In this document: positions 26,251 through 63,367 of the stretch, piece after piece
Layout: each line of letters starts with the position of its first letter
Numbering within the stretch: position 1 is the stretch's first letter
From: Deltaproteobacteria bacterium
Lineage (GTDB): Bacteria > Desulfobacterota > DSM-4660 > Desulfatiglandales > HGW-15
Direction: 5' to 3'
Length of the DNA stretch: 64,000 nucleotides
Assembly (NCBI GenBank): GCA_019310485.1
Contig: JAFDEF010000002.1
Coordinates: forward strand, 28,124-92,123
The notes under the pieces: model-generated
What the model was told of the DNA's origin: nothing
The model's input: only the letters and a program-made list of their open reading frames with translations
Databases searched by the model: none
Program-made: the position numbers and the translations under genes

Positions 26251-26937
26251 TCATGACGGGCGATTCTTTAGGCTCCTGTAATAGCTGTCGATATTGTAAA
26301 TCGCCGCAAGTGGATTATGCCCAAGCAATCGGTCTTTCACTGCCAGGACCGTACAGGGCGCTTCAGCATATTTCAAGAACAGGGAATCATGCCCCACGCA
26401 TAGCCCCATCACTACATTGAAATCCGTTTTTGAATCATTAAGCACCATCGCCTGCATGATCGGGTTACACATGGATTCAAACTGCCCAATAGCGATCTTT
26501 TGATCATCACGAATTCCGATCTTTTCTTTGGGAGTACGTCCGGCCTTGCAGACAACCGAGACGACCTCAAATCCCCACTTGGAGAAAACCATTTCAACCG
26601 CCTGGGCTTCCTTTCTAAGGCCAATGCAAAATACCAGCCCCAAACGCTTGTAGCCCATTTTTTGAGCAAACTCCATGACCTCAACAATGCGTGGTTTTAT
26701 GGGGCGAACACGGGCATAGCCGAGTTCTTTGTCTCCATAGCCTTGCGCCTCCTGAATGGAGGCCTGTCTTGCAAATTCCTTAATTTCCAGGTGCTCGTAT
26801 TCTTGTAGAGATTTCTCGATAATCTCCTTTTTATAGAGCGTAGGACAAAAAGCCGGTCCTTTCCCATTCTCTTTCCTGCACGCCCTCTCAGAAAGCTTCA
26901 CACTACATTTGGCACAATTAGGCAATTTGTCATTCAT
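26251..26937 (-). CDS. DUF1847-like putative metal-binding protein
   Basis: 228 aa with an N-terminal Cys motif (PNCAKCSVKLSERACRK...GPAFCPT) and GGAAAGGAG RBS. Family assigned from memory of the motif only. Confidence 0.55.
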   Translation of the reverse strand: MNDKLPNCAKCSVKLSERACRKENGKGPAFCPTLYKKEIIEKSLQEYEHLEIKEFARQASIQEAQGYGDKELGYARVRPIKPRIVEVMEFAQKMGYKRLGLVFCIGLRKEAQAVEMVFSKWGFEVVSVVCKAGRTPKEKIGIRDDQKIAIGQFESMCNPIMQAMVLNDSKTDFNVVMGLCVGHDSLFLKYAEAPCTVLAVKDRLLGHNPLAAIYNIDSYYRSLKNRPS

Positions 26938-30261: not shown

Positions 30262-30500
30262 ATTACCACCCTTACAAACCAAAAGGCAATGTTATTCGCC
30301 AGAGGTGGGAGGTTGGACCGGCTTAATTAAGGCGATCATTGACACGAATCCTCTTGGTTCACCTTTACAGATCTCAAAATGAAAATGGGGAGACGGGAAC
30401 GCCCTAAATCCCTTCAGTAGAAATTTCTTGACAGACGTCCTTTTTAATGATAGTTAGAATCTCAAAACAATATTATTTTGCTCTAACAAAGGATTCAGAC

Positions 30501-31067
30501 ATGCAGACTGACGAAAGTAAAAAGTCGACCCCAAGGGCCTTGACCGCCAGCATGGAGGATTACTTGGAGGCTATTGTGAATCTGGAAAACGAGAAAAAGG
30601 CTGTCAGGGTCAAAGACATTGCCAAAAGGCTCGGGGTGCGTATGCCTACGGTTACGAGCATGCTCAAGACCTTGGGCAAGGCAGGCCTTGTGAATTACGA
30701 GAAGTATGAATATATCCAACTTACAAACAGGGGGAAAAAGGTTGGCAAGGAAATTGACCGAAGACATCATGCGTTGAAGAAGTTTCTTAGAGACATACTT
30801 GGTATTGACCCCGATACCGCCGACGAAGAGGCCTGCAAGATGGAACACGCTGTAAGCGCCTCAACACTGAATAGGTTCGTGGAATTTATGGGTTTCATCG
30901 AGTCTTGCCCCAGGGCAGGCAAGCAGTGGCTTGAATACTTCCAGGAGTATAGACAACACGGCAGGAACAAGGCAACATGCCTTGAATATATGCGCAGCTT
31001 TGAACAACTTTTCAAAAAACAACTTGAAGCTGCAGAAATGGAGACAGAAATAGAAAATGGTGCTTAG
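30501..31067 (+). CDS. DtxR/MntR-family metal-dependent repressor
   Basis: MEDYLEAIVNLENEKKAVRVKDIAKRLGVRMPTVTSMLKTL (wHTH), followed by the metal-site helix region (HHALKKFL...DEEACKMEH). ATG at 30501. Confidence 0.85.
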   Translation: MQTDESKKSTPRALTASMEDYLEAIVNLENEKKAVRVKDIAKRLGVRMPTVTSMLKTLGKAGLVNYEKYEYIQLTNRGKKVGKEIDRRHHALKKFLRDILGIDPDTADEEACKMEHAVSASTLNRFVEFMGFIESCPRAGKQWLEYFQEYRQHGRNKATCLEYMRSFEQLFKKQLEAAEMETEIENGA

Positions 31068-31272
31068 CCAAGCAGAGCCGGGGAAAGAGGTTACTCTGGT
31101 GGATATAATCGGAGGAAGAGGTGTAAAATCCAAGCTGTACAGCATGGGGCTTATACCTGGCACAAAGGTCAAGATTCTCACCCACGCCTCAATGGGTCCT
31201 GTCATGGTGAGGGTAAGAGACTGCAGGTTGGCCTTGGGCCGCGGTATGGCGGAAAAAATAATCGTGGAGTAA
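31057..31272 (+). CDS. feoA: FeoA-family protein
   Basis: 71 aa, SH3-like FeoA pattern (G..v.l..i.GG......L..mGl.pG..v.v). The start overlaps the dtxR end by 11 nt. Confidence 0.8.
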   Translation: MVLSQAEPGKEVTLVDIIGGRGVKSKLYSMGLIPGTKVKILTHASMGPVMVRVRDCRLALGRGMAEKIIVE

Positions 31273-31361
31273 TTTTTTTTGAGGTAAAACTTAGATCTAT
31301 CTAACAATGATGTGTTCTTCTAAATTATGCCGCAAAATATCAAACAAAAGGAGGAAAAACC

Positions 31362-31595
31362 ATGGACTTATCATTACGCGAGATGGACGTGGGCTCCAGG
31401 GGAAGAGTGAAGGGCTACAAGGAAGGTGCAAAACCTTACCTGGATAAAATCCTTGCCATGGGCCTTACCATAGGGGCCGAATTCACGGTAAGTCGGGTAG
31501 CTCCCCTGGGAGACCCGGTAGAGTTGAATGTGCGAGGGTATGACATAACCCTTAGGAAAAATGAGGCTGAAATCTTGATAGTGGAAAGGAGGTAA
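31362..31595 (+). CDS. feoA: FeoA-family protein (second copy)
   Basis: 77 aa, LDKILAMGLTIGAEFTV...GDPVEL. AGGAGG RBS. Immediately upstream of feoB. Confidence 0.8.
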   Translation: MDLSLREMDVGSRGRVKGYKEGAKPYLDKILAMGLTIGAEFTVSRVAPLGDPVELNVRGYDITLRKNEAEILIVERR

Positions 31596-31597
31596 AT

Positions 31598-33931
31598 ATG
31601 GGCATAATAACCATAGGTCTTGGAGGCAATCCCAATTGCGGAAAAACCACACTCTTTAATGCCCTTACCGGTGCAAAGCTCAAGGTGGGAAACTGGCCCG
31701 GGGTCACCGTTGAGAAAAAGGCAGGTAGTTATACTTTTAAAAATCTAGATGTTGAAGTAGTTGATCTGCCGGGTATCTATTCCCTTTCGGCCACGTCAGT
31801 GGATGAAAGGATCGCGAGAGACTATGTGGCATCGGGCGAGCCTGATCTCATAGTCAACATAGTGGATGCCTCCAACATGGAGCGCAACTTATATCTTACT
31901 TTACAGCTTTTGGAGATGAATGTACCGCTCATTATTGCCCTAAATATGATGGATATTGCCCGGGCGCGCGGAATCAAGATTGACATAAAGTCCCTTGAAA
32001 GACTCCTTGGCTGTCCTGTGGTCCCCATGGTGGCAAAGGAGGGCGAGGGTATCGTCCCGCTCAAAGAGGCTATCAAGAAATGGGCAAAGGAGAAGCGGCA
32101 TGCTGATTTTAGGATGGATTACGGTTCCGAAATAAAATCGGCTCTTGAAAGGCTTCTGCCTTTAATTCAGGAGAGTTCAGAAAGGGTTTATATTCACCCC
32201 GAATGGCTCGGCCTGAAACTCCTAGAACAGGATGAGATGGCCCTTGCCTTTGCAGGTGATTCGATCGGCAACACACTAAAAGAGGTCGCCGATACTATAA
32301 AGGTAAAGACGGGTATGGAGCCGGAGGCCTTCGTGGCGATGGCACGCTATAATTATATTGAAAACATCTGCAGCCAGGCAATCAAAAAACGATCAAAGCT
32401 GGGGAAAAACATCTCGGATATCATCGACTCGGTAGTGCTAAACCGCTACCTTGGTATTCCTATCTTTCTCCTCGCAATGTATCTAACCTTTATGTTCACC
32501 ATCAATGTGGGTGGTTGTTTTATAGACTTTTTCGACATGCTCTTTGGGACTGTATGTGTAGATGGGTTCGGCAGGCTACTCTCAGTACTACACTTTCCAC
32601 AATGGCTCATAACCATCCTGGCTGACGGCGTGGGAGGTGGCGTCCAGACCGTCTCAACATTTATTCCTCCCATAGGATTCATGTTCCTGTGCCTTTCAAT
32701 ACTTGAAGATTCAGGCTATATGGCCCGTGCCGCCTTTGTAATGGACCGGTTTATGAGAGCAGTGGGACTTCCAGGAAAGGCCTTCATACCCATGCTGGTA
32801 GGTTTTGGCTGTAATGTCCCGGCAATCATGGCCACAAGGACACTGGAAAACACGAAAGACAGAACCCTAACCATTGCAATGAACCCTTTTATGTCATGCG
32901 GGGCGCGGCTGCCTGTATATGCCCTTTTTGCGGCCGCCTTCTTTCCAAGGGGAGGGAGGAACGTGATCTTCAGTCTTTATCTCATTGGGATAATGGTGGC
33001 GGTCTTAACTGGCCTTTTCCTCAAAAGGACCGTGCTCAAGGGCGAAGTATCGCATTTTATCATGGAGCTTCCGCCCTACCACATGCCTACCATAAGAGGT
33101 GTGCTCATACATACCTATGAGAGGCTCAAGGTCTTCATGTTCCGCGCAGGCAAGGTCATCATTGCGATAGTCATAGTCTTGAGTTTTTTGAACTCTGTCG
33201 GTACAGATGGTACGTTCGGCCACGAAGACAGTGGCTCATCCCTCCTTGCTGCAATCGGCAAGGGTATCACCCCGGTCTTTTATCCCTTGGGCATCCATAA
33301 GGAGAACTGGCCTGCCACTGTAGGGCTTTTTACCGGGGTCTTCGCCAAGGAGGCGGTGGTCGGCACGCTCAATTCCCTTTATAGCGCAGAGGCACAGACT
33401 GGAGAAGAGGAAGAAGGCTTCAACCTGGTTCAGGGAATCAAAGATGCCTTTTCATCCATACCTGAGAACCTTTCAGGGCTTGCCGGATCCCTTGCAGATC
33501 CCCTCGGCATAGGCTCTGCTACAGAGGAGGCACCTGAAGAGATGGGGAAAAGTACATTTGGGGTCATGGGCAAGCGTTTTGATGGAAAGGTAGGGGCCTT
33601 TGCGTATCTTCTCTTTGTGTTGCTCTATATACCGTGCCTTGTGGCAGTTGCCACCATCTACCGCGAGACAAATGCGAGGTGGGCCGTCTTTGAGGTGGTT
33701 TACACAATCTTTGTGGCCTGGGTCGTATCAACCCTTTTCTATCAGATGGCTACCTTTGGCAAGCATCCGGCCGCCTCGCTGGCTTGGGTTATAGGTATAG
33801 GGTTCGCATGTGCTGTACTTTACTATGTGATGAAAAGGGCTGGAAGGAAACTCCTTTTGCTCGCCGCAAAGGGAAGACCCACAATAGGGCCGGCTCATGA
33901 AACCCTGCCTGTTTTTCAAAGGATAAGATAG
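31598..33931 (+). CDS. feoB: ferrous iron transporter FeoB
   Basis: 777 aa with an N-terminal G-domain (GNPNCGKTTLFNALTG, DLPG) and a polytopic membrane domain with gate motifs. Confidence 0.95.
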   Translation: MGIITIGLGGNPNCGKTTLFNALTGAKLKVGNWPGVTVEKKAGSYTFKNLDVEVVDLPGIYSLSATSVDERIARDYVASGEPDLIVNIVDASNMERNLYLTLQLLEMNVPLIIALNMMDIARARGIKIDIKSLERLLGCPVVPMVAKEGEGIVPLKEAIKKWAKEKRHADFRMDYGSEIKSALERLLPLIQESSERVYIHPEWLGLKLLEQDEMALAFAGDSIGNTLKEVADTIKVKTGMEPEAFVAMARYNYIENICSQAIKKRSKLGKNISDIIDSVVLNRYLGIPIFLLAMYLTFMFTINVGGCFIDFFDMLFGTVCVDGFGRLLSVLHFPQWLITILADGVGGGVQTVSTFIPPIGFMFLCLSILEDSGYMARAAFVMDRFMRAVGLPGKAFIPMLVGFGCNVPAIMATRTLENTKDRTLTIAMNPFMSCGARLPVYALFAAAFFPRGGRNVIFSLYLIGIMVAVLTGLFLKRTVLKGEVSHFIMELPPYHMPTIRGVLIHTYERLKVFMFRAGKVIIAIVIVLSFLNSVGTDGTFGHEDSGSSLLAAIGKGITPVFYPLGIHKENWPATVGLFTGVFAKEAVVGTLNSLYSAEAQTGEEEEGFNLVQGIKDAFSSIPENLSGLAGSLADPLGIGSATEEAPEEMGKSTFGVMGKRFDGKVGAFAYLLFVLLYIPCLVAVATIYRETNARWAVFEVVYTIFVAWVVSTLFYQMATFGKHPAASLAWVIGIGFACAVLYYVMKRAGRKLLLLAAKGRPTIGPAHETLPVFQRIR

Positions 33932-33989
33932 ATGAGACCCTCACAGTCATGAATTCTTTCAAATTGATTTATATGAGGTGAGTTGACCC

Positions 33990-34283
33990 ATGAAAGCACC
34001 GGCCAAAGAGGACTTAATCAATGCCATTGATAGGGGTGTGGAGGAATTGCACCCGCACATTGAGATGCATCGTTATCTCATGACGAGTATCTTAAGACAG
34101 AAGGTCGAGGAGAGGGGGCTTAAGACGCTGCCCCTGGCCCTTCGCTCTCCCTATGAGGAGAAGATGAAAGGGGCTATCGAGGAGGCGATAGTTACGCTGG
34201 AAGAAAGCAGAAAGGCCTTCAAATCAAAGAGATTGGAGGCCCTCCGAAAGAGACTGACAAAGGTTTTGATAGAAAGTGCATAA
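33990..34283 (+). CDS. hypothetical helical protein downstream of feoB
   Basis: 97 aa, GAGGTGAG RBS, Lys/Glu-rich helices, no Cys. No family recognised. Confidence 0.45.
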   Translation: MKAPAKEDLINAIDRGVEELHPHIEMHRYLMTSILRQKVEERGLKTLPLALRSPYEEKMKGAIEEAIVTLEESRKAFKSKRLEALRKRLTKVLIESA

Positions 34284-34332
34284 TCAGAAAAGGTAGTCAG
34301 CCTTACGGGTCTTGCTTCGGGCAAGGCAAGTG

Positions 34333-34385
34333 AAGGCGCATCGAAAACGGCTTCAAAGTTGGTTTTCATGCGCCTTTTTATTTTC
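34333..34385 (+). terminator. rho-independent terminator after the feo operon
   Basis: Stem AAGGCGCATCGAAAAC / GTTTTCATGCGCCTT (one bulge) with a 13-nt loop, followed by TTTTTATTTT. Confidence 0.6.
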
Positions 34386-34522
34386 TGTGAAGAAAGGAGG
34401 TGGTGGGAAAGAATGCAAAAGATGCAAATGCAGCGGATTTCGCTATGCCTGCTGTAGAAACCAGCAAGTTCAAGGCGAACCCGGGATTGTTATCCGGATT
34501 ACCAAAAAGGAGGTACGAACAG

Positions 34523-35689
34523 ATGAAAGCATGCATAGCGGCTCTTGTAGCAGTTTTTGTAAGTGGTTTTTTTGGCCCGATGGTGTTCGGGCAGGAGATC
34601 ACCAAGGATGAGATTGCAAAAGAGTTGAAGTCGCTCAAGGCGAGGATCAACAAACTTGAACAGGAAGTCACTCGGAAAGACAAGGAAATTGAAGGGCTCA
34701 AGGCGAAGGTGGAAAAGCCACCGGAGACGGCGTTTGCTGAAGAAGGGCAGGAGAAATGGACCGACAGGATCACATTTTCCGGTGCTATTGAGGTGGAGTA
34801 CGGAAGCGAGAAGCACAAGGTGAAAGAGCCCGGGACGGGGAAATCCACGAGCACCAGGGATGATGACATCACCCTCTCCACCGTGGAACTGCACGCGGAC
34901 GCGCAGATAAACAAGTACACGAAAGGGCATGTGGTGTTTCTGTACGAGGAAGATGAAGACGAGGACCGGGCCCGCATTGATGAAGGTACCATCCGGCTCG
35001 GGGGTATCAAGCAAACCCATAACCTCTACTTCCAGGCCGGGAAATATTATCCCCATTTCGGGGAATTGAACTCGTGGTTCATATCTGATCCCCTAACCTG
35101 CCAGGTCTTTAAGATTCAGGAATCGGCAGCAGAAGTGGGATACGATGCAGAGTGGTTTTCTTTTGCTGCTGGGATGTTTCATGGGGATCTACAGAAGAAA
35201 GGGGAGGATGAGAGCAGGATCAAGGGTTTTTTCGCCGATGCCAATGTCCATAATCAGGAGGATACTCTGGGAGGATTCTCTTTGCTGGCCGGGGTATCCT
35301 ACCTGAACAACGTTGCCGATACGGATACGCTCCAGGACGAGGTGAATCAGATCAGGGACTATGTGGGAGGAGTGGCCCTGTACCTGGTTGCCGAATACAA
35401 CAACTTCAGTTTCGGGGCCGAGTATATCACTGCTATGGACGACTTCCATGCAGGGGAAATGAGGTATGCCGTTGACCGGAACGGCAACCCAGCAGAAACA
35501 AAACCTGTGGCCTGGAATGTTGAACTGGCGTACAGGCCCATGGATCGTCTCCAGCTTCCCGTGAAATACGAAGGGACCAAGGACATATTCGGGCTGTTTC
35601 CTGAGAGACAATATGGTGTTGTGGTCAGCTATGATCTGTTCGAGTCCACCACCATTTCTGCAGAATACCTGCACGGGGAATATGAATGA
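34523..35689 (+). CDS. putative outer-membrane porin with an N-terminal coiled coil (siderophore/iron-associated porin-like); the 3' end appears frameshifted
   Basis: ATG at 34523 after AAGGAGG. Signal peptide MKACIAALVAVFVSGFFGPMVFG, a coiled coil (KELKSLKARINKLEQEVTRKDKEIEGLKAKVEK), then alternating beta-strand-like sequence. The expected terminal strand ..TLQLAVEF* is in the +1 frame at 35691-35765. Confidence 0.55.
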   Translation: MKACIAALVAVFVSGFFGPMVFGQEITKDEIAKELKSLKARINKLEQEVTRKDKEIEGLKAKVEKPPETAFAEEGQEKWTDRITFSGAIEVEYGSEKHKVKEPGTGKSTSTRDDDITLSTVELHADAQINKYTKGHVVFLYEEDEDEDRARIDEGTIRLGGIKQTHNLYFQAGKYYPHFGELNSWFISDPLTCQVFKIQESAAEVGYDAEWFSFAAGMFHGDLQKKGEDESRIKGFFADANVHNQEDTLGGFSLLAGVSYLNNVADTDTLQDEVNQIRDYVGGVALYLVAEYNNFSFGAEYITAMDDFHAGEMRYAVDRNGNPAETKPVAWNVELAYRPMDRLQLPVKYEGTKDIFGLFPERQYGVVVSYDLFESTTISAEYLHGEYE

Positions 35690-35931: not shown

Positions 35932-35961
35932 TTGACAAAAGGCGCCAGAGTTATAGATAAT
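35932..35961 (+). promoter_or_regulatory. sigma70-like promoter upstream of the J-domain gene
   Basis: TTGACA (35932-35937), 18-nt spacer, GATAAT (35956-35961). Confidence 0.4.
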
Positions 35962-36049
35962 GATTAATATTCTAGGCGTGCATGCAGACGGCCATAGTTG
36001 CAAAAATGGCCATAGATGAATACCCCTATACATGAAGGAGCAAGCGACC

Positions 36050-36451
36050 ATGATGGTCAAAGATTACTATCGAATCCTTGGGGTGAGCAGGGATGCCTCC
36101 GATGAGGAAATCAAAAAGGCATATCGAAGCCTTGCAAAGCAATACCATCCTGATACAAACCACGGAAACCCTGCCAGCGAAGAAAGGCTGAAGGAAATCA
36201 ACGAGGCCTATGACATTCTGGGGGATAAAGAAAAAAGAACGCTTTACGACCTTCAAGTTAGTCGGTCACCAAAATATGAATTTGTACAGGATAGTAGAGT
36301 TGTTAATCACTTATCTGAACTAATTGATCTTTTTTCCAGACTCTCTAGCAGTGGATTTTACAAAGTACGACCTGGTGGATGTAGAAGAAGGGGGTTTGGC
36401 AGGGGCTGCCGTGGCAGGCGCAGATTTTTTTTCGATGATGTGTTTGATTAA
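36050..36451 (+). CDS. J-domain (DnaJ-like) protein with a short Arg/Gly-rich C-terminal tail
   Basis: [39 protein letters not shown] (HPD motif). The tail is [25 protein letters not shown]. No Zn-finger or C-terminal DnaJ domains. GAAGGAG RBS. Confidence 0.85.
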
Positions 36452-36457
36452 ATATAA

Positions 36458-36486
36458 CGAGGGCAGGGGTAAAACCCCTGCCCTCG
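36458..36486. terminator. bidirectional GC-rich hairpin between convergent genes
   Basis: Perfect 12-bp stem CGAGGGCAGGGG / CCCCTGCCCTCG with loop TAAAA. A T-rich run follows only on the minus-strand side. Confidence 0.55.
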
Positions 36487-36499
36487 TCACTGTCATTTA

Positions 36500-36886
36500 T
36501 TAGGTTTCGGCTTGCTGTTGTGTTTCGAGCTCCTCAATGCGTTTGCTAATTTCATCCAGGGCGCGTTTCATGTCTTCTGCCTCGGCCTTCAGCATTTCGG
36601 CTTCTTCCGAGGGGCTCATTCCATAGGGACCATAAGGGCTACCATAGGTTGGACCCCAATAGCCTCCTGCCCAGCCTGGAGCGTACGCTCTCCAGCCCCA
36701 GCCTCTGCTATAACCACGGCCCCAGCCGAACCACCCTCGGCCGTAACCGCTGCCTCGGCCATACCAGCCTCCATACCAAGGGCCGTAAGCACCTCTCCAG
36801 GCAGGGTTACAAAGGCCACGGCCTCCTCCTGTCATAGGGCCAGCGCCCCAAGGGCCTGTTCCGTCTAGTCCTGGCATACCAGACAC
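36500..36886 (-). CDS. DUF5320-like protein: Gly/Trp/Tyr/Arg low-complexity core plus an acidic coiled-coil tail
   Basis: 128 aa. The N-terminus is MSGMPGLDGTGPWGAGPMTGGGRGLCNP, the core is a GW/GY/RG repeat region, and the tail is SPSEEAEMLKAEAEDMKRALDEISKRIEELETQQQ. AGGAGGTG RBS. Confidence 0.75.
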   Translation of the reverse strand: MSGMPGLDGTGPWGAGPMTGGGRGLCNPAWRGAYGPWYGGWYGRGSGYGRGWFGWGRGYSRGWGWRAYAPGWAGGYWGPTYGSPYGPYGMSPSEEAEMLKAEAEDMKRALDEISKRIEELETQQQAET

Positions 36887-36907
36887 CTCCTTTCCTCATA
36901 AATTATT

Positions 36908-37126
36908 CTACCAGTAAACAGGGCCATAAGCGGGACCCCAAAACGGGCCTGCCCATCCGGGACCATAGGCCCTCCAGCCCCAGCCTCGGCCATAACCACG
37001 GCCCCAGCCGAACCAGCCTCTGCCAAAGCCTCGACCCCAGCCTCTGCCGTAGCCTCGGCCTCTTCCGAAACCCCAGCCAAACCAGCCTGGGTACCACGGT
37101 CCGTAGAATCCCGGCATTCCAAACAC
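36908..37126 (-). CDS. 72-aa Gly/Trp/Arg/aromatic low-complexity protein (core-only DUF5320 paralog)
   Basis: MFGMPGFYGPWYPGWFGWGFGRGRGYGRGWGRGFGRGWFGWGRGYGRGWGWRAYGPGWAGPFWGPAYGPVYW. AGGAGGTG RBS. It shares a 52-nt, ~92% identical DNA segment with the 128-aa gene. Confidence 0.6.
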   Translation of the reverse strand: MFGMPGFYGPWYPGWFGWGFGRGRGYGRGWGRGFGRGWFGWGRGYGRGWGWRAYGPGWAGPFWGPAYGPVYW

Positions 37127-37164
37127 CTCCTTCCTTCGTCTAGTATTCTCTAAGATATAAAAGG

Positions 37165-37404
37165 TTAAAAGATTCCCCTTCTACCTCTACCAAAGCGACC
37201 CATCATCTTACCTCGGCCTCCTGCCTGGCCTCGTCCTAGGCCCCTTCGCAGGCCCATTCCTCGACCATAACCAGGGAATTGACCAGTTTGTGGCACCTCA
37301 GGGCCATTCATCATACGATTTGGATTACAGTAACCAAGCCCTCTTCCAGTTCCAGGGCCATTTCCCATAGGTCCAGTTCCATCAAAACGTGGCATTCTGC
37401 TCAC
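37165..37404 (-). CDS. 79-aa DUF5320-N-motif protein with an RG-rich tail
   Basis: MSRMPRFDGTGPMGNGPGTGRGLGYCNP... carries the same N-motif as the 128-aa protein. The tail is GLGRGQAGGRGKMMGRFGRGRRGIF. AAGGAGGTG RBS. Confidence 0.6.
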   Translation of the reverse strand: MSRMPRFDGTGPMGNGPGTGRGLGYCNPNRMMNGPEVPQTGQFPGYGRGMGLRRGLGRGQAGGRGKMMGRFGRGRRGIF

Positions 37405-37410
37405 CTCCTT

Positions 37411-37752
37411 TCAAAAAGGGCCTCTACCCCAACCTCGACCTCTTCGCCTGCGGCCTCTGGGCGGAAGCTCAAAATGACCGCCTTCAATCCTCAGAACCCT
37501 TCCCATAACCAATGCCTCAGCCACAATCCTGCGAGCCTCGCCAAGGATTCGACCAAAGGTCTGGCGCGAAACATTCATACGTTCTGCAGCGGTTTCCTGA
37601 TCCAGCCCCTCAAAATCGCTCAATCGAATTGCCTCGAACCCTTCAATTGGAAGCACTATCTCACCACGGCCCCAGGGCGCCAACCTATTGGGTATAAACC
37701 CGGTTACCACCGGCGGGCCTTGAACAAATCTCATTTTTCTTGGTCTAGGCAT
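37411..37752 (-). CDS. DUF134 (UPF0251) putative DNA-binding protein with an RG-rich C-terminal tail
   Basis: MPRPRKMRFV...EAIRLSDFEGLDQETAAERMNVSRQTFGRILGEARRIVAEAL is the canonical DUF134 sigma70-region-4-like HTH. The tail is PPRGRRRRGRGWGRGPF. Confidence 0.8.
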   Translation of the reverse strand: MPRPRKMRFVQGPPVVTGFIPNRLAPWGRGEIVLPIEGFEAIRLSDFEGLDQETAAERMNVSRQTFGRILGEARRIVAEALVMGRVLRIEGGHFELPPRGRRRRGRGWGRGPF

Positions 37753-37786
37753 ATCCTATTTTTCTCCATTTTGAGCTTACGCTCAT

Positions 37787-37814
37787 AATATAAAACCCGC
37801 CATTTCATTGTCAA
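37787..37814 (-). promoter_or_regulatory. near-consensus sigma70 promoter of the DUF134/DUF5320 operon
   Basis: On the minus strand: TTGACA (37814-37809), 16-nt spacer, TATATT (37792-37787), about 35 nt upstream of the DUF134 ATG. Confidence 0.45.
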
Positions 37815-37976
37815 GCATTTTTTGTAAGCATATGCCCAAAAATCTCCTAAGGGCTTCGGTGCCGTGGGTCTTACGGGCATCCCAAATAGAAGCCCCGACT
37901 TCTGTTATAAGCCACCTCCACACCCCCATCTATATGGGCATACCTAAAAGGAGTCCCCACAGAGGGCTCTATAGAT

Positions 37977-38297
37977 TCAGGCCGTCTCCTCTGCGAGCCT
38001 TTTCACCCATTGGGGCACGGTGGCCTCTTCTATGCAATGATAGTCCTTAATATATGGCTTTACATCCACAATAGGGCTGCCGACCAGGGCCTCAAGGCCT
38101 TTTGCTAGGAGCACATTGCCCCTCCGGCGCATAAGCCTAACGGGGGAGAGCAGAATAGGATTTGGTCTCATTGGACTACATGTGGCGAAAATGCCCCTTT
38201 TCGGCATATCTTTGCTACCCATGGCACGAACCTGTAGAATCCCCTTACGCTCTTCAGGGATAAGGTGGGCCCAGTAGAGAACCATGATATGGGAAAA
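37977..38297 (-). pseudogene. TrmO/YaeB-family (TsaA-like) methyltransferase fragment lacking ~50 N-terminal residues
   Basis: FSHIMVLYWAH...RGIFATCSPMRPNPILLSPVRL...LEALVGSPIVDVKPY aligns by eye to E. coli TrmO residues ~55-150. The N-terminal strands are absent, and upstream DNA encodes a PhoU fragment on the other strand. Confidence 0.55.
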
Positions 38298-38330
38298 ATA
38301 TGTCGTGAAGTGGATACGATGAAGCACCGC

Positions 38331-38537
38331 TGTTATGACCTGGTCAAAGAAGCCCTAAAAAAAGAGCCTGACAGGGCAGACTGTCTCATCAATCTGCTTC
38401 TCGTCTCCCGGCACCTGGAACGAATCGCAGACCATGCCACCAATATCGCCGAGGAGGTTATTTATTTGATAGAAGGTGAGATCCATCGGCACAACAGGGA
38501 CACCCTGGATCCGGATCAGGACACATCAGCCCAATAA
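38331..38537 (+). pseudogene. C-terminal fragment of PhoU
   Basis: ..CLINLLLVSRHLERIADHATNIAEEVIYLIEGE is the last PhoU repeat (ERIgDhatNIaE.viY). The first ~150 aa are missing. Confidence 0.6.
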
Positions 38538-62824: not shown

Positions 62825-63367
62825 CTAGTCTACAAGCATGAGGCAGTACTCATTGTTGGTCTCTTCTCTTCGTCTGAGAGTTTTTATAAAAAAACCATTA
62901 TTTCTGGCAGTCTGATACACATCAATCCCACATGCCTCCATACACGGCCTGGCCCTGTCCAGGAAATTGCACGGCTTTCCCTCAAGCTTTGCGCATTTCT
63001 TACAAATCCTGCATGGACCGGCAAGCATAACGAATGCCTTGTAAAAACCGTCCTTAAACATCTCACCTTCCAGGTCTACGAGATTGTCAAAAAATTCCCT
63101 GTAGCGCTTTTCCTTCTTCGGCATGTGGGGTACTTCAATATGAAAAAGAATGCACCGGTGGTAGCTGTCCAGAATAGTTCTTGTCTGCTCCGGTGTTGGT
63201 GTATCAGGAGGGCAACAGTACCCTTTGCCATACCCTACACAGCCAAACTGGCATTTCAACCTCACCCAAGGTGCTGTTACAACGCTACTGGGGTGAATTT
63301 CCTTTGCATCCCTCGCACCTCTCGCAACTGCCTGCGCACAATATTTCTCCAGATCTGCATCGACCAT
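62825..63367 (-). CDS. DUF2284-like predicted metal-binding protein
   Basis: 180 aa with CQFGCVGYGKGYCCPP and a later CRICKKC. Family assigned from motif memory. Confidence 0.6.
   Translation of the reverse strand: MVDADLEKYCAQAVARGARDAKEIHPSSVVTAPWVRLKCQFGCVGYGKGYCCPPDTPTPEQTRTILDSYHRCILFHIEVPHMPKKEKRYREFFDNLVDLEGEMFKDGFYKAFVMLAGPCRICKKCAKLEGKPCNFLDRARPCMEACGIDVYQTARNNGFFIKTLRRREETNNEYCLMLVD

Follow-up and report, generated by a model that had tools for sequence, protein, structure and literature searches.

A 64,000-nucleotide stretch of a Deltaproteobacteria bacterium genome (GTDB lineage Bacteria; Desulfobacterota; DSM-4660; Desulfatiglandales; HGW-15; GenBank assembly GCA_019310485.1, contig JAFDEF010000002.1, positions 28,124 to 92,123 of the forward strand; here called the window) contains an operon that raises a question: what do three small proteins rich in Gly, Arg, and aromatic residues do behind a regulator of the DUF134 family? 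The operon is a single compact transcription unit on the minus strand (37838 to 36454), with the DUF134 gene followed by three DUF5320-related genes. A first-pass annotation had described these four products and a convergently encoded J-domain protein as sharing Arg-Gly/aromatic segments. The five open reading frames (ORFs) exist as described (ORF check and Pfam), as do the one near-consensus promoter, the gene order, and the AGGAGG ribosome-binding sites (RBSs) upstream of each of the three small genes. We tentatively read the small products (p76, p69, and p125) as tail-only, IssA-like polycations that would serve a NifX-like/ORP-type iron-sulfur (Fe-S) system under DUF134 control, a reading that we hold at somewhat less than even confidence. 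The operon comprises the following features.

37787..37814, minus strand: operon promoter of the sigma-70 type, TTGACA-16-TATATT, matching the consensus at 11 of 12 positions.
37411..37752, minus strand: DUF134 (UPF0251) helix-turn-helix (HTH) regulator, 113 aa; Pfam PF02001, 75.6 bits against a cutoff of 27, profile positions 6 to 96 of 98.
37165..37395, minus strand: p76, a 76-aa DUF5320-type protein with an N-motif and a low-complexity core (N-L) and no C-terminal helix, isoelectric point (pI) 12; Pfam PF17253, 37.5 bits, above the gathering score over profile positions 1 to 57 of 99 only.
36908..37117, minus strand: p69, a 69-aa Gly/Trp/Arg/Tyr/Phe protein consisting of the low-complexity core only (L), pI 11; no Pfam match.
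36500..36877, minus strand: p125, a 125-aa full DUF5320 protein (N-L-H); Pfam PF17253, 83.1 bits over the full length, above the gathering score.
36454..36490, between the convergent genes: strong hairpin that closes the operon, -33.7 kcal/mol, z = -8.6.

The likely start in each GTG ORF is an ATG three codons inside, giving proteins of 76, 69, and 125 aa; these ATG codons, which lie behind the AGGAGG sites, are preferred because the N termini of the family have invariant Met1 and Pro2. The promoter is kept in five contigs with unrelated flanks further upstream, and the hairpin is a probable bidirectional terminator. An Rfam scan of the 30- to 39-kb region matched no RNA family. The proposed assignment to DUF134 and DUF5320 held in Pfam for the regulator and for the 76- and 125-aa proteins (79 and 128 aa from GTG) but failed for the 69-aa protein (72 aa from GTG), which has no match above the gathering score and is related to DUF5320 by descent only.

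The three small ORFs are real genes under purifying selection, including their low-complexity segments. They are the top three among 265 window ORFs of at least 60 aa for Gly, Arg, and aromatic content, and the residue counts first given for the 72-aa ORF are exact (26 G, 11 W, 8 R, 7 Y, 7 F, and 7 P, with only A, V, and M as the remainder). Pairwise comparison of the four operon genes with two related contigs gave ratios of nonsynonymous to synonymous substitution rates (dN/dS) of 0.07 to 0.24 (DUF134, 0.08 to 0.12; p76, 0.19; p69, 0.12 to 0.24; p125, 0.07 to 0.12). These are not near 1, and the small ORFs are coding rather than repeat DNA. In the p69 gene, the two other sense frames gave 1.0 to 2.3, and the antisense frame in codon register gave 0.24 to 0.36, as expected from shared third positions. 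Because purifying selection is confined to the annotated frame among the sense frames, the p69 ORF is coding, and noncoding GC-rich repeat DNA is ruled out by this frame-specific signal. Public gene calls for the Gly/Trp gene take an overlapping Ala/Glu-rich frame (window, 36865-37122, minus strand; L087, 7585-7800; L086, 1425-1649; related loci carry numbers with the prefix L), which by dN/dS is not the coding frame.

The p69 gene is a partial tandem duplicate of the p125 gene that has lost the N-motif and the helix: the two genes share a 119-nucleotide core repeat (78% identity) and a 50-nucleotide RBS/start segment (76%). The core of p69 also matches a custom hidden Markov model built from the DUF5320 alignment (E = 5.6e-9). 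A homolog search with p69 passed only two matches, composition correction removing low-complexity matches. Orthologs of p69 are found in L001, L006, and L087, and those of p76 are found in L001, L086, and L087. The operon of L001/L002 (metagenome) has DUF134, 76-aa, 69-aa, and 114-aa genes, and the 76-aa gene is missing from that of L006 (uncultured Desulfobacteraceae, 88% identical). Operon gene content differs among near relatives, and in L086 (1309-1653, minus strand), the 69- and 125-aa genes have recombined via the shared repeat into one core-plus-helix gene without the N-motif.

DUF5320 proteins are modular, being assembled from an N-motif (N), a low-complexity core (L), and a C-terminal helix (H). 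The N module reads MPxxDGTGPxGxGPMTGxGRGxCNP, with Asp, Cys, and several Gly and Pro residues invariant. In p76, it takes the form MPRFDGTGP...GYC and is followed by an Arg-Gly low-complexity region; in p125, the motif with its invariant Cys precedes a Trp-rich Gly/Arg/Tyr core and an acidic heptad-repeat helix, in which the hydrophobic residues are spaced 4-3-4-3 (L96, A100, M103, L107, I110, I114, and L117). An AlphaFold2 model of p125, made from a 20-sequence alignment, predicts disorder for residues 1 to 85 (predicted local distance difference test [pLDDT] below 50) and a helix at residues 89 to 124 (pLDDT 78 to 87). The median L module of 120 homologs has 32% Gly, 13% Arg plus Lys, 23% aromatic, and 1.5% acidic residues, and many family members have Met or Gln where others have aromatic residues. 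Against a family median of 3.4%, the low-complexity region of p125 is 14% Trp, and the window lineage is unusual only by this Trp content.

Relatives were collected by scanning one genome per species; 423 were confirmed and the best 80 were kept, and all locus counts refer to 81 loci. The relatives are mostly Desulfobacterota, with others in Dehalococcoidia, Omnitrophota, Elusimicrobiota, Calditrichaceae, Planctomycetales, Latescibacteria, Atribacteria, and Clostridia. Their DUF5320-type architectures are distributed as follows.

N-L-H: 78.
N-L: 23.
L-H: 12.
L alone: 5.
NifX-L-H: 12.
Helix-ferredoxin: 2.
N-L with a zinc ribbon: 9 loci.

At least two DUF5320-type ORFs stand together in 39 of the 81 loci and at least three in 13, so the triplicated set is not the special feature that it had seemed. 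Small 2x[4Fe-4S] ferredoxins with an N-terminal helix matching the DUF5320 C-terminal helix were also observed (L011, 2747-3199, minus strand; L031, 12792-13130, minus strand; L095, 3370-3768), in each case directly downstream of a small J gene.

We clustered 770 neighboring proteins and checked the families by Pfam on representatives. The recurrent neighbors are as follows, with the NifX-like, ATPase, PAS activator, NifU_N, and Fur genes counted within 5 kb.

NifX-like (PF02579): 35 of 81 loci.
MinD/ParA-Fer4 and Mrp ATPases: 26 of 81 loci.
PAS sigma-54 activators (OrpR-like): 22 of 81 loci.
NifU_N: 14 of 81 loci.
DGTGP zinc-ribbon proteins: 9 of 81 loci.
Fur: 8 of 81 loci.
Small J protein, no more than 8 kb from DUF5320 and separated from it by genes that differ from locus to locus: 6 of 81 loci.

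Other recurrent families are ARMT1-like, methyltransferase, CGGC (5 loci), and ArsP_2. An ORP-type gene set surrounds DUF5320 in 38 of the 81 loci, and one operon order is repeated in several phyla (Fur, DUF5320, NifX, NifX, DGTGP-Zn ribbon, methyltransferase, ATPase-Fer4, oxidoreductase, ATPase-Fer4, Mrp). In 41 loci, the gene immediately preceding on the same strand is DUF134, and Fur takes its place at the head of otherwise similar operons.

Fusions, moreover, join DUF134, NifX-like domains, and DUF5320 modules in every pairwise combination. In the loci, a C-terminal (GMGR)n tail followed by the DUF5320 helix is present on at least 13 NifX-like proteins, and on one of these tailed proteins Pfam found both PF02579 and PF17253. 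A full-library search with the window DUF134 protein returned 3350 representatives (50% identity). Among the 143 full-length top matches, 16 are fusions with a NifX-like domain (four confirmed by Pfam) and at least 4 are fusions with a DUF5320 module (one passing the Pfam cutoff); 25 more have a Gly/Arg stretch of at least 24 aa, and 74 have a basic C terminus. In-frame DUF134-DUF5320 fusions occur at L039 and L042. The first-pass annotation had kept a metal- or cofactor-handling role as its fallback, and this role is favored by the context, that is, by the NifX-like/Mrp/MinD-Fer4/NifU/Fur neighborhoods and by the low-complexity-plus-helix tail on NifX-like proteins. A link to ferrosomes (fez), suggested by a P-type ATPase beside DUF5320 in L004/L005, was rejected. 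Ferrosomes are defined by the P1B-6 ATPase FezB with D[Y/F]SCA and HNxxT motifs and by GxxxG membrane proteins; the L004 ATPase has a CPC motif and not the FezB signature, fez-like genes do not recur, and no P-type ATPase lies near the operon in the window.

These associations lead to IssA of Pyrococcus furiosus (PF2025/Q8TZG9; Vaccaro et al. 2017), which consists of a NifX-like domain followed by a disordered 70-residue tail. The tail has 7 cationic, 14 aromatic, and 15 Gly residues, with Trp, Gly, and Arg conserved, and is proposed to wrap anionic thioferrate (PMC5524996). By this published description, the IssA tail resembles the window proteins: it is cationic; rich in Gly, aromatic residues, and Trp; almost free of acidic residues; and predicted to be disordered, and it has one Cys. 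The values published for IssA-type tails are a pI of at least 9, fewer than five Cys residues, and at least 20% Gly at the C terminus. The window proteins agree with them (p69, pI 11.0, 36% Gly, and no Cys; p76, pI 12.0 and one Cys; N-L part of p125, pI 9.8). Unlike IssA, they are tail-only and add an N-terminal DGTGP...C motif, a coiled-coil helix (p125), and an HTH regulator of their own. Pfam found the NifX-like domain (IPR003731/PF02579) in none of the window proteins; because it is absent, we do not file them as IssA members, and their Fe/S binding is putative. Since the window proteins have the chemistry of the IssA tail minus the NifX-like domain, and NifX-like proteins of bacterial relatives carry Gly/Arg tails that score as DUF5320, we read the former as IssA-like tails.

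The system that such tails would serve is suggested by the orp cluster of D. vulgaris Hildenborough, whose content matches DUF5320 neighborhoods (PMC6345978, PMC8359166). Many DUF5320 loci likewise hold two or three NifX-like genes, two MinD-like 4Fe-4S ATPases, Mrp/NBP35, and a PAS sigma-54 activator. Unlike that cluster, the 64-kb window has none of the ORP-type genes, and its operon is regulated through sigma-70 and DUF134 rather than through sigma-54 and OrpR. Neither DUF5320 nor DUF134 is described as an ORP component in PMC6345978 or PMC8359166.

Under the IssA-like reading, the operon would be a self-contained, autoregulated cassette. DUF134, whose HTH resembles sigma-70 region 4 and whose Arg-Gly tail is predicted to be disordered, would bind palindromes around its own promoter. 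The products, three modular disordered polycations (p76, N-L; p69, L; p125, N-L-H), would act with NifX-like (PF02579) proteins of an ORP/IssA-type system of anaerobes. The ligands would be anionic Fe-S species, either thioferrate-like (FeS2-)n chains or other metal-sulfide clusters; Arg side chains would neutralize them, and aromatic residues would pack around them. Through the H helix, the proteins would assemble further with partners that bear the same helix, and the J protein may assist by bringing DnaK to these assemblies or to Fe-S scaffolds. The loci themselves display real genes, a modular architecture, predicted disorder followed by a helix, a network of fusions and neighborhoods, and a conserved candidate operator; beyond these, we infer the ligand, the storage or buffering role, the binding of DUF134 to the palindrome, and the role of the J protein with DnaK.

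Several points weigh against the IssA-like reading. The 64-kb window has no NifX-like, Mrp, or OrpR-like gene, the two weak matches being ordinary ferredoxins, and a literature search gave no binding, metal, or expression data on DUF5320 or DUF134 proteins. The likeness to the IssA tail is one of published composition, not of alignment. The reference mechanism is itself not settled, because thioferrate-like iron still forms in cells without IssA (PMC8219758). The model leaves the conserved N-motif without explanation, and Trp stacking cannot be essential to the family, because many members have Met or Gln in place of aromatic residues. Lastly, the Arg-Gly tails on the HTH protein could be extra DNA contacts. 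We give small odds to a bolder version in which these proteins and the tailed NifX-like proteins would form a membraneless iron-sulfide store, a protein-mineral coacervate made by condensation of the disordered Arg/aromatic chains around anionic FeS polymers; DUF134 would gauge the loading of the store by its Arg-Gly tail, and dissolution would fall to DnaK and the Cys-bearing J protein. Such a coacervate would unite the condensate and metal-handling ideas.

The DUF134 protein ends in an Arg-Gly tail, PPRGRRRRGRGWGRGPF, predicted to be disordered, and an AlphaFold2 model gives its core a pLDDT of 88 (predicted TM-score, 0.76) and the tail a pLDDT of 56 to 58. The three-helix HTH superposes on sigma-70 region 4, extracytoplasmic function (ECF) sigma domain 4, and the DNA-binding domain of DeoR (SorC family) at 0.6 to 0.9 A over about 40 to 49 residues, and Sigma70_r4_2 matches in Pfam are subthreshold. 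Unlike the sigma factors and DeoR, DUF134 has additional beta strands at both termini as well as the Arg-Gly tail, and it lacks sigma region 2. Searched whole against solved structures, it gave no full-length match (best Foldseek E value, 0.08; query-normalized TM-score of at most 0.43). A literature search for UPF0251/COG1342 found nothing functional. Some Dehalococcoidia DUF134 proteins (L080, L082, L084, L072, L051, L067, and L083) carry, ahead of the Arg-Gly tail, an additional Cys4 insert resembling a zinc ribbon, and one DUF134 representative (P0368) has a subthreshold HypA-like match. Two palindromes bracket the promoter.

37772..37785, minus strand: candidate DUF134 operator (repression site), the proximal palindrome, an exact TGAGC-N4-GCTCA located after the -10 hexamer and before the ATG.
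37825..37838, minus strand: candidate DUF134 operator, the distal, imperfect copy, TGGGCATATGCTTA, immediately preceding the -35 hexamer.

DUF134 probably binds both and thereby regulates its own expression. The exact palindrome occurs once in the 64-kb window (pattern scan), and the positions homologous to the distal copy read TGAGCATATGCTCA in L006 and others. In the upstream regions of five contigs with unrelated flanks, conservation extends only from about -80 to the start codon. Palindromes with at most one mismatch are centered at about -22.5 and -75.5 from the DUF134 ATG, 52 to 53 bp apart, in 24 of 41 DUF134 loci. Over 890 kb scanned, 42 of 65 sites lie no more than 150 bp upstream of a DUF134 or DUF5320-type start, positions that by our estimate make up about 3% of the sequence. 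The promoter-operator cassette also directly precedes DUF5320 genes without an intervening DUF134 gene, as well as an OrpR-like activator (L059) and an ArsR-like gene (L063). The pair of palindromes around a TTGAC-N17-TATATTA promoter was observed in many phyla (e.g., L034, 7561/7613; L035, 2440/2492; L037, 291/343), and we found no description of the TGAGC-N4-GCTCA motif in the literature.

The DUF5320 proteins might instead be regulatory partners or sensor modules of DUF134 (a corepressor, an antirepressor, or a ligand-sensing adaptor) rather than a store or carrier, with the L, N, and H modules giving in trans what a fused NifX-like or Cys-rich domain gives in cis in other DUF134 proteins. 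DUF134 stands immediately upstream in about half of the loci; it is fused to NifX-like, Cys-rich, or DUF5320 modules, as is typical of one-component regulators with swappable sensors; and the operon is probably autoregulated. Yet DUF5320 genes also stand behind Fur, or alone behind the same operator with no adjacent DUF134 gene, and the several paralogs per locus and the NifX-tail fusions fit structural or stoichiometric roles better. We consider this alternative unlikely, though worth keeping in view, and it is compatible with the IssA-like reading.

The first-pass annotation had suggested that the proteins are bacterial counterparts of RGG/aromatic nucleic-acid-binding or condensate-forming proteins. 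Their Arg-Gly plus Tyr/Phe/Trp sticker composition and predicted disorder do fit the low-complexity domains of FUS/hnRNP proteins, and DUF134 and DUF5320 proteins of Methanosarcina mazei were flagged with an RG-type quadruplex-binding motif (PMC7565180), although that is a motif match only and not an experiment. Unlike FUS/hnRNP proteins, the window proteins lack RNA-recognition domains and have no neighbors linked to nucleic acids. The same tail sits on NifX-like cluster-binding domains, and among the 770 neighbors no RNA- or DNA-metabolism genes recur, the recurrent ones being Fe-S or metal related. The context thus lends the suggestion no support, and we regard it as improbable.

A further idea, with still less to recommend it, is that the proteins are scaffolds or tethers for MinD/ParA-like ATPases of an ORP-type complex, acting in positioning or cell division rather than in ligand binding. 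MinD/ParA+Fer4 and Mrp ATPases are frequent operon partners, the H helix is also found on ferredoxins, and the ORP complex has been proposed to act in cell division, with polar localization of MrpORP (PMC6345978). However, the operon has no ATPase gene nearby in the window, L001, L006, L086, or L087, and the strongly cationic, acid-free composition is left unexplained. Finally, that the small ORFs are GC-rich repeat DNA or precursors of secreted or modified peptides (ribosomally synthesized and posttranslationally modified peptides or antimicrobials) is hardly credible: the region is repetitive with long ORFs in other frames, the conserved N-motif and variable core superficially resemble a leader and core, and radical SAM genes occur in 4 loci, but frame-specific purifying selection, Pfam membership, consensus RBSs, the conserved C-terminal helix, the lack of a signal peptide, exporter, or consistently linked maturase, and the absence of the supposed leader from p69 all contradict it.

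Does the operon then belong to one system with its neighbors on the other strand? Two features and an iron-uptake module lie there.

36032..36451, plus strand: J-domain-only protein, 139 aa from 36032 and probably 133 aa from 36050; Pfam DnaJ PF00226, 96.9 bits.
35932..35974, plus strand: promoter-like site of the J gene, TTGACA-18-GATAAT, overlapped by a Fur-box-like match.
30447..35689, plus strand: iron-uptake module with a DtxR-like repressor, two FeoA proteins, FeoB, a 97-aa protein, and an LbtU-family porin.

The start of the J protein at 36050 is probable, the homologs being 133 aa long, and its C terminus continues past the FFF at which it had been said to end. The HPD motif (H39, P40, and D41) is invariant in the family alignment. 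The protein fails both the full-length DnaJ model (TIGR02349; 108 bits versus 377) and the HscB model (TIGR00714; 25 bits versus 46.75). Its family consists of J-only proteins of about 125 aa with a conserved tail, a GGC-x7/8-C Arg-Gly box with two conserved Cys residues. Like HscB/Jac1, the J protein has a J-domain with HPD and no DnaJ client-binding domains, and genes of its relatives lie beside NifU_N, ferredoxin, and ParA-like genes; unlike HscB/Jac1, it has no C-terminal helical domain of the HscB type and instead has the 25-residue Arg-Gly box. Arg-Gly tails are family traits rather than a peculiarity of this locus: 40 of 42 distinct DUF134 proteins adjoining DUF5320 have one, and the J tail with its Cys pair is family-wide.

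FeoA is matched by two proteins (72 and 65 bits), and the 777-aa protein has the FeoB_N, Gate, and FeoB_C domains; the LbtU-family porin scores 231 bits (cutoff, 90). The 97-aa protein encoded between feoB and the porin gene has no family match and is conserved (window, 33990-34283, plus strand; L087, 4731-5024). The proposal of a dedicated system with the J protein and feo holds for the closest relatives and for L007: L087 has synteny identical to that of the window (DtxR, FeoA, FeoA, FeoB, the 97-aa gene, porin, J, and the convergent DUF134 operon), and L007 has FeoB and J near a DUF5320 operon. It breaks down in L001 and L006, where the operon lies in other flanks. In L086, the J gene and the DUF134 operon lie beside a TonB receptor and an FecCD-type ABC transporter. 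Linkage to Feo is confined to close relatives; more distant J genes lie beside NifB-like, ferredoxin, NifU_N, ParA-like, and CooT genes or beside a radical SAM gene. Because relatives have J genes beside Fe-S-related genes, J and DUF5320 belong to one wider Fe-S-related network. The iron-uptake module is the context of the operon and may be a member of the system. The iron context of the lineage (Feo/LbtU porin/DtxR in the window and L087, TonB/FecCD in L086, and FeoB in L007) supports the IssA-like reading.

The best Fur-box-like match in the window, at 35956-35974, agrees with the Escherichia coli consensus GATAATGATAATCATTATC at 15 of 19 positions, with about 0.5 such matches expected by chance by our estimate, and is kept in L086 and L087. 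It overlaps the -10 hexamer of the J-gene promoter and is only a lead. A scan with the DtxR-box consensus gave 13/19 at best and nothing near the operon.

The upstream side gives the operon the look of a cassette at a site of rearrangement. Homology between contigs ends at the distal operator. Truncated TrmO_N and PhoU ORFs overlap just upstream (37977-38327, minus strand; 38265-38537, plus strand), and L087 and L090 have a DDE transposase at the corresponding position. Elsewhere in the window, we noted DUF1847 and DUF2284 proteins, both predicted to bind metal (26251-26937 and 62825-63367, both minus strand).

The set in the window is one instance of a widespread, modular, uncharacterized family and not a unique system. 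New here are the DUF134-DUF5320-NifX-like network, the candidate operator, the origin of the Gly/Trp gene by duplication, and the hypothesis of IssA-type tails. Gene callers often choose the wrong frame for the Gly/Trp gene, and such proteins are therefore probably under-annotated in databases. How strict anaerobes buffer, store, and traffic iron and sulfide is poorly understood; to our knowledge, IssA is the only characterized thioferrate-type store, and we know of no defined function for the ORP complex. The candidate operator TGAGC-N4-GCTCA could define a DUF134 regulon across phyla, and if DUF5320 proteins are indeed detachable IssA-like tails, two widespread uncharacterized families would gain a concrete hypothesis.

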